Shown: positions 56,276 through 59,083 of the stretch, one piece after another
Position numbering within the stretch: the stretch's first letter is position 1
Layout of the letters: each line of letters starts with the position of its first letter
Assembly (NCBI GenBank): GCA_905178155.1
Contig: CAJINV010000002.1
Location: forward strand, 5,327,709 to 5,391,708
Reading direction: 5' to 3'
Length of the DNA stretch: 64,000 nt
From: Amoebophrya sp. A120
Taxonomy: Eukaryota; Protista; Dinoflagellata
Notes under the pieces: model-generated
What the model was told of the DNA's origin: nothing
What the model saw: only the letters and a program-made list of their open reading frames with translations
The model's database searches: none
Program-made: the position numbers and the translations under genes

Positions 56276-59083
56276 ATGGCGCTCGCCGGCACGAAGACGC
56301 AAACTGCCCGGCTGACGCCGAGCGAGGCGGTCCGGCTAGACAAGCAGATTGAGCAGGTGCTTGGTATGAAAGAGCTGTCGGAGGCAGAGACGAAGGAGCT
56401 CGCAGCGCGAACAAGGGAGATATTAGCGGAAGAGTCAAACGTCGCAATAGTAAAGTGCCCAGTCACGGTTTGCGGCGACTTGCACGGCCAGTTCATAGAC
56501 CTAAAGGTATGTCTATGCAGTTTTTATCGTTCTTATGGTGACGGCGCTGGTGTTATGCGGTGATTCTGAATTATGCCAATGACAGATGCAGATCGTAGTT
56601 TCCATATGCATCTATAAAAATAATACGTTAACCTTAACGTTACATTACATTGAAAAGCAAAAGAGCAAACAAAAACAAAATCTTGTCAGGAACTGTTCAC
56701 AATAGTGGGGTCCCCGCCAGAGACAAATCTGCTGTTTCTAGGCGACTACGTCGACAGAGGCTACTACTCCGTGCTCACCGTGACGTTAATGTTCTTGTAC
56801 AAAATCAGGTACAAAACTTCTACATTCATGGTTCTTTTGATTTCGGCTCTATTCTTTACGTCATGATCGATGATCGCGTTCGTGATTCTGAATGATGACG
56901 CAAGGCAAAAACAAAACTTTGTCTGTTAACTACACATCATTTGCATGAAGATGAAGAACTGTTCTCGTCTGCAAGACTGAAAAAAAATTTTCGATAACCA
57001 ACAGATATCGCGACATGGTGTGCATCATAAGAGGGAACCACGAAAGCAGGCAAGTCACGCAGGTTTACGGCTTTTTCGACGAGTGCGTGCGGACATACGG
57101 GAGCAGCGAAATATGGAGGTAGAGTCTTTATTGTCCTATTCCTATGTTGAAGTTTTATTGCAATCATGGAAATTTATTTTTATACCCTGCAGCTTTTTTG
57201 TTTAGTTTTGAGGCGCGAATTGTTTGTGATGCATGAATGCAATCATGAAATAAAAACAGGTGTTTCACGGACGCTTTCGACGCGCTCCCCTTGACCGCCC
57301 TTATCGAAGACCAAATCCTGTGCCAGCACGGCGGCCTCTCACCAAGTATTGGAATTATTCAACATGCTCCGTTTTCTATTCGTGAACAATGACAACCACA
57401 CCCGGGCCCTCTTTTGCCATGTTCCAACAGATGAGAGTGTTGAAACGCGCCGGCTTTCTTCCGCGCTTCGTCCTCCCCGTGATGACCCGCGACCCGCGTT
57501 GTTGTGCTATAGTAGCCTGATCATGCTTGCTACAACTCTACTTCACAGCCGCACTTTCATCTTGCACGCGCTGCGGCCGCCCGATTTGTGTTTCACTTCA
57601 ACAACGCCGGCGCAAGCGCTACCATGGGCCAAAAAATCTCCTGGAGGTGCACAAACGTGCTATCCATATTCTGTTCGGTGAAGATGATGACCAAAGCATT
57701 CTTGCGCGCGCCCATTGCAACAGATGTTGCATTACGATTACCAATTCCCCCCGCGTACGTAGGTATGCAATCATGTGAGTTTGTCACTTTATTGAGTTCT
57801 TCTTCTCAGCGTTTTTTTTGCTTGATCATGGTAGGTCGTGTTTTCTATTGGTTATGGTACCCGGTGGTGTCGTGGAGGTCGTCGTCCAAACCGAAAGAAT
57901 ATCACTCGTACAAAATCACTCATGGTCATGACGGACACGCAGGATCATGCTGGGATAAAAATATTAGGAAGCTAGCGGCATCCGCACCAAATTTTTGCGA
58001 ATCCACGAAGATCTTCATGTAAGTAACTGTAATAACTGAAACTACTGTCAGGCATCGACACCCTGGACAATATCCGCGAATTAGACCGGATGGTGGAGGT
58101 ACCACACGAGGGGCCCATGTGCGACATCCTCTGGTCCGATCCAGATGAGAGGTGCGGCTGGGGCATTTCCCCACGAGGAGCGGGCTACACCTTCGGCCAG
58201 GATGTCAGCGAGACGTACTATTTTTTCTCACGCTTACGTTTCTGGATGAGGTGACCTTGAGGTTGTGATCAGATCACCAAATATAACGTTTTTGCAACGC
58301 GTCGTGCAGGATCTTGCACAACTGATCGTGTCGTGCGACGAGGACGTGTGGCTCTTTCTTAAGAAACAAACGTCTAGAAGTACAGGTACACTGTGAAAAA
58401 CAATATGCAGAAAACCACCGTTTTATCAGGTTCAATCATACTAACGGGCTCAAGCTGATCGGCCGAGCACACCAGCTGGTGATGGAGGGCTACACCTGGT
58501 CACACGAAAGATATCAACTGCAAAAGTGTCTAGGTCTGGAAGAGTCATGCTGTTTTTGCATGAGACAGAAGGTCTGGCATGGAAGCTATAGCATCACAGG
58601 TTTCGAGAAGCTTCCGCAATGCCGGAGCCGCATGTCAAATCCCCCATTTTGGTGACAGAAAGTGGGCAGCTGATGCTACCGATGCATCAGAGATTTTTCT
58701 GTTTTCTGAAATACGCATCACAAGTTTGTACTCTTCCAGACCCAGACATATTTGCAATCCATAAAAGAAACGTGGTCACCATTTTCAGCGCGCCAAACTA
58801 CTGCTACCGATGCGGTATCTTCTTGTTATTCTGATCTGCTTGTCATGCAGATAATTCTCTTTACCGAGTGCTACGTCGTGACTTTGAAAGGGCCTCCTTC
58901 TTGTGCAACACAAATTACCACCAAAATTGATTCACATGATCAGGTAACCAAGCTGCAGTCATGGAGATCGATGAGCATCTGAAATACACCTTGCTCCAAT
59001 TTGACGCGGCACCGCGAGAAACCCAGGACGGCGCACCAGAGCAGCTGCCGCCCGTGAAACGCATCCCTGACTACTTCATTTGA
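56276..59083 (+). CDS. PPP2C: Serine/threonine protein phosphatase 2A catalytic subunit (PPP family), about 8 exons
   Basis: Motifs [103 protein letters not shown] and C-terminal PDYFI*. Confidence 0.95.
58512..58763. mobile_element. TIR introner, family A (reverse complement of the 40041/32059 type)
   Basis: Family A TIRs, DR AAAGA; removal restores [16 protein letters not shown]. Confidence 0.93.

Follow-up and report, generated by a model that had tools for sequence, protein, structure and literature searches.

The 64,000-nucleotide window analyzed here (Amoebophrya sp. A120, contig CAJINV010000002.1, positions 5,327,709 to 5,391,708 of the forward strand) contains a gene for a PP2A-type phosphatase catalytic subunit. 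The gene is interrupted by six GT-AG introns and by a non-coding element with TAT..ATA terminal inverted repeats, referred to here as the PP2A introner. This introner is absent, to the base, from one transcript contig and from the deposited protein. The class of element is already published, and the PP2A copy belongs to a population of introns that numbers in the thousands in Amoebophrya, a marine algal parasite. Added here are the finding, from a comparison of related loci, that the repeat flanking the elements arises by true target-site duplication in a family that moved recently, and a tentative proposal for the position of the cut.

The PP2A Gene and Its Introner

The coordinates of the gene, its introns, and the parts of the introner are listed in Table 1. 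The product contains a Metallophos domain with intact metal-binding motifs and carries the DYF tail. Its best PDB match is PP2A-alpha (503 bits, E 2.7e-150), followed by a chain labeled PP3 (333 bits) and PP1-type chains (at most 284 bits). Judged by these matches, among which neither PP4 nor PP6 is listed or compared, the product is closest to PP2A among the phosphoprotein phosphatases. The 326-residue model is identical to P0001, deposited as an Amoebophrya sp. A120 protein, and the introner junction was therefore already annotated.

Record 1 of run X3 is a contig of 3491 nucleotides with a depth of 45. The RNA nature of run X3 is guessed from its record; the contig itself is taken to be transcript-derived because all six GT-AG introns are missing from it. 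It also skips 257 nucleotides at the introner, from 58506 to 58764, with five letters that fit on either side. The junction is crossed at one depth, and no retained form occurs among the 8 pieces listed of 36. Retention of the element would end translation after 312 amino acids, with the loss of SAPNYCYRC and the C-terminal DYFI.

The initial annotation, made from the sequence alone, had predicted the precise removal of an introner without GT/GC-AG ends from this gene, and the X3 contig and P0001 agree on that removal. The remaining six introns are GT-AG, as had been stated, and the X3 contig lacks these as well as the introner. A different cDNA junction or an untranscribed copy had been named as grounds for rejection; the contig junction is the one predicted, and the gene is transcribed. 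The span given for the introner, 58507 to 58768, does hold the element but includes both repeat copies, and 257 nucleotides are removed rather than 262. The restored motif is not invariant, reading SHERN here and CHDRN in human PP2A and in the relatives P0002-P0004. The novelty of the case was overrated, since the junction is present in the deposited protein and genes with both intron types are a common class in A120 (Farhat et al. 2021, PMC7789003).

Table 1. Features of the PP2A locus, in window coordinates.
Feature	Position	Strand	Remark
Gene for PP2A-type catalytic subunit (326 aa in 8 exons)	56276..59083	+	spliced model identical to deposited P0001
Exons 1-4	56276-56506, 56690-56808, 57005-57118, 57260-57345	+	
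Exons 5-8	58052-58214, 58430-58511, 58769-58814, 58944-59083	+	
GT-AG intron 1	56507..56689	+	gene model and X3 contig skip
GT-AG intron 2	56809..57004	+	gene model and X3 contig skip
GT-AG intron 3	57119..57259	+	gene model and X3 contig skip
GT-AG intron 4	57346..58051	+	gene model and X3 contig skip
GT-AG intron 5	58215..58429	+	gene model and X3 contig skip
Upstream target-site duplication copy, AAAGA	58507..58511	+	sister empty sites hold one such copy
Non-coding TAT..ATA terminal-inverted-repeat element (introner), 252 bp	58512..58763	.	
Left inverted-repeat arm (TAT, 7 nucleotides, then AAAA)	58512..58545	+	
Right inverted-repeat arm	58730..58763	-	
Downstream duplication copy, AAAGA	58764..58768	+	
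Most likely intron as cut, AT..AG, 257 nucleotides	58511..58767	+	predicted; five other cuts give the same mRNA
GT-AG intron 7, 46 nucleotides 3' of introner	58815..58943	+	gene model and X3 contig skip

The inverted arms of the introner are 34 nucleotides long and 82% complementary. The predicted fold of the element is one long hairpin (−101 kcal/mol, z = −6.4), and none of 200 shuffled sequences was as stable. A search of the window against Rfam gave no match. The introner is positioned between two GT-AG introns, 82 nucleotides after one and 46 nucleotides before the other.

The border between exons 6 and 7 can be placed anywhere inside the AAAGA repeat. This gives six equivalent 257-nucleotide cuts with the ends AA-TA, AA-AA, AG-AA, GA-AA, AT-AG, and TA-GA, and the six 5' dinucleotides are those that the initial annotation had listed. 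None of the six is GT/GC-AG, and the observed junction does not conform to the canonical U2 pattern. One cut (58511-58767) reads AT-AG, and its AG acceptor had been overlooked. The claim that no GT donor is available stands for a precise cut but not for the sequence just inside the element, where in-frame GC/GT donors occur at 58520, 58526, and 58544. Paired with the AG at 58767, these would add 3, 5, and 11 residues, respectively; all three alternatives are ruled out by the X3 contig and P0001.

Intron 4 of the same gene is 706 nucleotides in length, three to five times its GT-AG neighbors, and contains a weak FLYWCH match below the cut-off. It is possibly an old insertion. The X3 contig extends 1284 nucleotides before 56100 and about 830 nucleotides past 59300, and a second contig of this run (record 15) extends about 2700 nucleotides past 40613. 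Such overruns beyond coding regions represent either long untranslated regions (UTRs) or transcription that continues from one gene into a neighbor of like orientation. All of the window's long open reading frames (ORFs) that carry elements are on the + strand.

The Element Family and Its Mobility

The window was scanned for elements with TAT..ATA ends, paired arms, and a flanking repeat. The scan identified 32 elements in the window and none in each of three shuffled sequences; the 5-bp repeat is perfect in 24 of the 32. Two hits with weak ends and a repeat matching at 3/5 bases (17444-18183 and 38156-38359) were dropped. Eight elements were added, five from an earlier listing and three found later, and two nested elements are counted within their hosts. 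The resulting catalog holds 36 outer elements, of which 26 have a perfect repeat, and these cover 16.8% of the window. The PP2A element has six near-full-length relatives in the window (65-83%). Copies of the family are present in both orientations inside + strand genes.

For none of the 36 elements does any of the six registers allow a precise GT/GC-AG removal, and there is therefore no sign of selection for canonical ends. Removal of three to five elements reopens + strand ORFs of 896, 989, and 963 codons. One protein, P0126, maps residue for residue to 49547-53968.

A metagenome scan using one inverted-repeat arm recovered 92 related stretches, in which the PP2A element has 49 matches over 200 nucleotides. 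A partner end was found for 82 of 93 anchors. An exact 5-bp duplication flanks 68 of these 82, and a 6-bp duplication flanks none. Two of the related loci (L037 and L001) are approximately 92% identical to the window over 791-8478 and 16584-24671. Eleven window elements have both flanks in these two loci; six are present there, and five are absent, each leaving a single 5-bp copy. In addition, three elements of the two loci are missing from the window, and the sites differ in 8 of the 14 compared. The comparison covers sister sites, the PP2A site itself lying outside it. Empty sites with one 5-bp copy indicate that the repeat is made on insertion and that the family moved after the strains split. 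These sites show genuine target-site duplication in a family that was mobile until recently. The related strain is a resource for dating insertions.

The empty sites in the related strain would also agree with a loss at the DNA level, either by somatic excision or through RNA transcribed from an allele without the element. However, runs X6 and X7, whose behavior is that of DNA, contain 0.92 and 0.91 of the words of the locus, and in the mapping of 21000-40999, record 16 of X6 passes unchanged through elements 22033 and 23506. The X3 contig has no mismatches to the window exons in the pieces listed, whereas the empty-site strain is about 8% different. A loss of this kind is considered extremely unlikely.

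A 6-kb TAT..ATA pair at 41301-47338 was considered as an autonomous partner of the family and rejected, as it has no duplication and contains an RNase H ORF and no transposase. Its ends at 41301 and 47338 are inverted over 19 nucleotides, without a target duplication. The ORF inside the pair (43741-45129, + strand) has 462 codons and encodes an RNase H domain (E 3e-7), with Cys and His residues clustered toward the end of the frame. It is probably a truncated retroelement of the type without long terminal repeats (non-LTR). A 30-bp repeat is located at 43755 and 45508.

Several other features of the window touch the family or lie near it. Two nests were identified. In the first (12670-13903), a 976-bp element (12690-13665) is inserted in the left arm of another. 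In the second, 38928-39190 lies inside 38640-39212, and the whole nest is removed by length accounting. A cGMP-dependent protein kinase gene at approximately 31900-40370 contains many introners, and a gamma-tubulin complex component gene (9575-14270) contains five. A protein search for the gene containing element 23506 returned no matches, and a search covering proteins of up to 2000 residues did not return the A120 protein of the kinase gene. At 61026-61484, a BART domain is matched weakly, with a score below Pfam's cut-off. A GC-rich cluster at 25500-26600 consists of short repeats, both inverted and direct, that do not resemble the TAT..ATA family, and run X6 has variant copies of it.

Removal of Sister Elements and the Proposed Position of the Cut

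Joints between repeat copies dominate the mapping of 21000-40999, of which only the piece ends were used; none of the 15 joints listed of 542 is the splice of a single element. Record 15 of run X3 holds 266 nucleotides between 38091 and 40304. By arithmetic, this length (7 + 46 + 74 + 44 + 95) equals that of a model with one GT-AG intron and the precise loss of five elements: 38092, 38640 with its nested copy, 39292, 39625, and 40041. Element 40041 is related to the PP2A element and lies in reversed orientation. Element 39625 keeps only 2/5 duplicated bases, yet is removed by length accounting. At 36818 and 52147, a GT..AG pair lies one base beyond each end; its use would preserve the frame and insert one codon, and neither pair is used. 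Record 7 of run X1 (depth 3) begins at 37080 in the former, and P0126 reads SDDE-DENT across the latter. Together these cases suggest that the paired ends mark the intron, rather than strand-specific internal signals or the duplication.

A reverse-transcriptase artefact would produce similar records if the enzyme switched template across the hairpin between the direct repeats while the element stayed in the RNA. The build of the element, a hairpin with direct repeats, matches known artefacts, which have repeats of 3-16 nucleotides (PMC8240250). All of the RNA evidence is complementary DNA (cDNA), and reverse-transcription PCR cannot tell splicing from such skipping. Retention, however, would truncate PP2A at 312 residues and would break ORFs of 890-990 codons. 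The uniform depth of the contig through the junction, the absence of a retained form among the pieces listed, and the removal by length accounting of an element with 2/5 duplicated bases also argue against an artefact. It is regarded as very unlikely.

The PP2A copy cannot reveal the position of the cut because its duplication is perfect. It is the wrong place to look, and the informative copies are the sister elements with mismatched duplications. In P0126, the upstream copy is retained at positions 1 and 4. At 39625, the upstream copy fits at positions 1 and 3, judged by the conserved FPW of the A25 relative P0007, and at 5434 it fits at position 1, judged by the empty site. Retention of the upstream copy in these mismatched sisters indicates a cut either one base before the inverted repeat (cut −1) or right at it (cut 0). 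Both position-5 mismatches in coding sequence (32868 and 51367) are synonymous, and proteins therefore cannot separate the two cuts. An element at 40615-40766, located in the 3' UTR of the kinase gene, has no recognizable duplication and is outside the 36. Record 8 of X1 and record 15 of X3 both leave the genome at 40613 beside this element, which fits cut −1.

In the −1 register, every element starts with NTA, and all eight tabulated canonical donors start with GTA. The start is NTATC in 21 elements and NTATG in 13, and 23 of the 36 have GT or AT donors. Only 3/36 elements would end in AG, so the AG acceptor at PP2A would be incidental. The nine commonest non-canonical motifs of A120 all have T as the second base (Table S4, PMC7789003). 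These patterns are consistent with a fixed −1 register, in which intron 6 of PP2A may tentatively be given as 58511-58767 with AT..AG ends. In the literature covered, with subscription papers outside this coverage, no fixed cut register for A120 was found.

Minor (U12-type) introns have a donor consensus of RTATCCTT and a branch site of CCTTAAC. The ATATC start of the −1 register resembles this donor, and a divergent minor spliceosome could be responsible for removal. The NTATC start of 21 elements would agree with this, and transposon-derived U12 introns are present in Physarum (PMC11282704). However, the PP2A start, ATATCAAC, matches the donor consensus at 5/8 positions, the first base is free, 13 elements read NTATG, and by eye there is no CCTTAAC-like branch site before the 3' end. 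Farhat et al. did not detect U11, U12, U4atac, or U6atac in A120 (PMC7789003). A minor spliceosome is given a very small probability.

Proposed Route of Removal and Related Systems

The proposed sequence of events begins with the insertion of a transposon-like TAT..ATA element into a PP2A coding exon, which would make the 5-base target duplication. Base pairing between the arms in the pre-mRNA would then place the exon ends side by side. The 5' cut would precede the inverted repeat by one base and the 3' cut would follow it by four, with the TA of the repeat supplying positions +2 and +3 of a donor that resembles the local GTA. The AG at the 3' end of the PP2A intron would be a coincidence of the target site. 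A relaxed U2-type spliceosome would remove the element plus one duplication copy from the RNA. In A120, all but 6 of 89 spliceosomal proteins were found, as were U2, U4, U5, and U6 (PMC7789003). Removal by a relaxed, stem-guided U2-type spliceosome with a fixed cut, in which the role of the spliceosome is predicted, is favored at slightly better than even confidence. That the cut follows a portable, orientation-independent rule (one base ahead of the TAT..ATA stem and four bases past it) is held with somewhat less than even confidence.

A number of observations weigh against this proposal. The RNA evidence is all reverse-transcribed and assembled, the X3 contig and P0001 may derive from the same data, and raw-read runs X10-X12 have 0, 2, and 0 reads over PP2A, too few to weigh. 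No transposase domain was detected in the 32 window ORFs scanned, and four longer elements of the related loci have no long internal ORF. U1 small nuclear RNA (snRNA) was not detected in A120 by Farhat et al. (PMC7789003). The T and A at +2 and +3 in 36/36 elements follow from the selection of TAT starts. Cut −1 is separated from cut 0 by element 40615 only, through two contigs with the next exon unseen, and other cuts could explain it. Eight of the nine motifs in Table S4 also have A next to last (PMC7789003). The Table S4 motifs and the deposited models place ambiguous junctions by the aligners' own rules. The catalogued families have GT or AT donors in approximately 42% of copies (fam12, 139/331, PMC12130899) versus approximately 64% for a fixed −1 cut. 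The upstream copy at 23506 has a residue-changing difference, which represents either a substitution or a cut further left. Finally, 9 of the 15 differences between repeat copies are synonymous, compared with 25% of possible changes (P 0.005 against random).

The last two observations would fit a floating cut, in which any of the six duplication positions is used and both copies are partly exonic. The legend of Figure 3 of Farhat et al. likewise describes splice sites as variable relative to the hairpin (PMC7789003). However, the synonymous excess is not significant when the model leaves one copy free and constrains the other (P 0.10), and some of the frames were guessed from ORF length. The sample is small, with the differences contributed by elements 4830, 14037, 32868, 36356, 39292, 39625, and 51367. 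Residue-changing differences at 52147 and 39625, including F-P-W versus F-L-G in a conserved kinase motif, also argue against a floating cut, which is judged distinctly unlikely.

The insert may instead be a real intron that leaves by a route other than U2, with an endonuclease or a dedicated machine cutting beside the terminal stem and the exons then ligated, a route suspected for the nonconventional introns of euglenids. The lack of conserved terminal dinucleotides, the removal in both orientations, the very stable hairpin, and the undetected U1 snRNA would all agree with such a route, and similarly built introns of euglenids leave as circles rather than lariats (PMC11282704). Against it, nearly all spliceosomal proteins and four of the snRNAs named above are present in A120 (PMC7789003), and the likely cut restores a donor-like NTA. 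The spliceosome of Fritillaria is also able to process transposon-derived non-canonical introns (PMC11282704). A non-U2 route is considered unlikely, but it carries appreciable weight.

Among RNA-supported introns of A120, 65% are non-canonical (Farhat et al. 2021, PMC7789003). The introners described in that source have an inverted repeat of TAT, 7 nucleotides, and AAA, have direct repeats of 3-5 nucleotides, and make up 17% of the genome. The PP2A insert agrees with these introners in organism, non-GT-AG ends, hairpin ends, length (approximately 250 nucleotides), repetition, and presence in a mixed-intron gene. It also has the 5-bp direct repeat over its borders and the TAT, 7 nucleotides, AAA pattern at 58512-58525. 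The coverage of the window is close to the published genome figure, and AT-AG is among the predominant motifs (2%). The arm is 34 nucleotides here, compared with motifs of 8-20 nucleotides there, and nothing differs in kind. Every defining feature tested was found, and by these features the PP2A insert is an A120 introner. In the available text, Farhat et al. treat the border as unknown or variable and question mobilization by a transposase (PMC7789003). The proof from empty sites and the proposal of a fixed register are added here and are not in that text.

A later catalog (Gozashti et al. 2025, PMC12130899) lists 58 introner families in A120, and most of the 21 rows available of these 58 are classed as terminal-inverted-repeat DNA elements with the superfamily unknown. 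These families resemble the PP2A element in length (252-262 bp), terminal inverted repeats, and mostly non-canonical ends (for example, fam12 with 331 copies). They differ in their automated duplication lengths, which range from 2 to 5; the comparison is by description and not by sequence.

The nonconventional introns of euglenids (PMC11282704) and the non-canonical introns of hemistasiid diplonemids (PMC12621601) also have paired ends and duplication-like repeats, lack GT-AG, and coexist with canonical introns. They belong to another lineage and have other end motifs, and circular products have been demonstrated there. In Fritillaria borealis, introns derived from miniature inverted-repeat transposable elements are likewise transposon-derived, non-canonical, and found beside ancestral GT-AG introns (PMC11282704). 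Those introns prefer the ends AG-AC and AG-AT and are reported to be removed by the spliceosome, whereas no preferred dinucleotides are seen here. The IS3EU/GingerRoot elements share TA..TA termini with the family, but their duplication is usually 6 bp (PMC10045372) as opposed to 5 bp here, and no transposase was found here in the ORFs scanned. Their likeness is a lead only as to the mobilizer.

The PP2A introner interrupts a conserved, presumably essential gene, and the locus is a convenient test case for the removal of tens of thousands of non-GT-AG introns in Amoebophrya. If the proposed route is true, the transposon end would give the T and A of the donor, and neither the first base of the intron nor any part of the acceptor would be constrained. 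The duplication would be unneeded once made, and an exonic insertion would be a perfect intron from birth. The spliceosome would find its cut sites by distance from an RNA stem and not by reading GT-AG, and the border left unknown in the available text of Farhat et al. would be resolved. A fixed register, if true, would reduce the variety of A120 splice sites to one rule, by which gene models could be corrected genome-wide.

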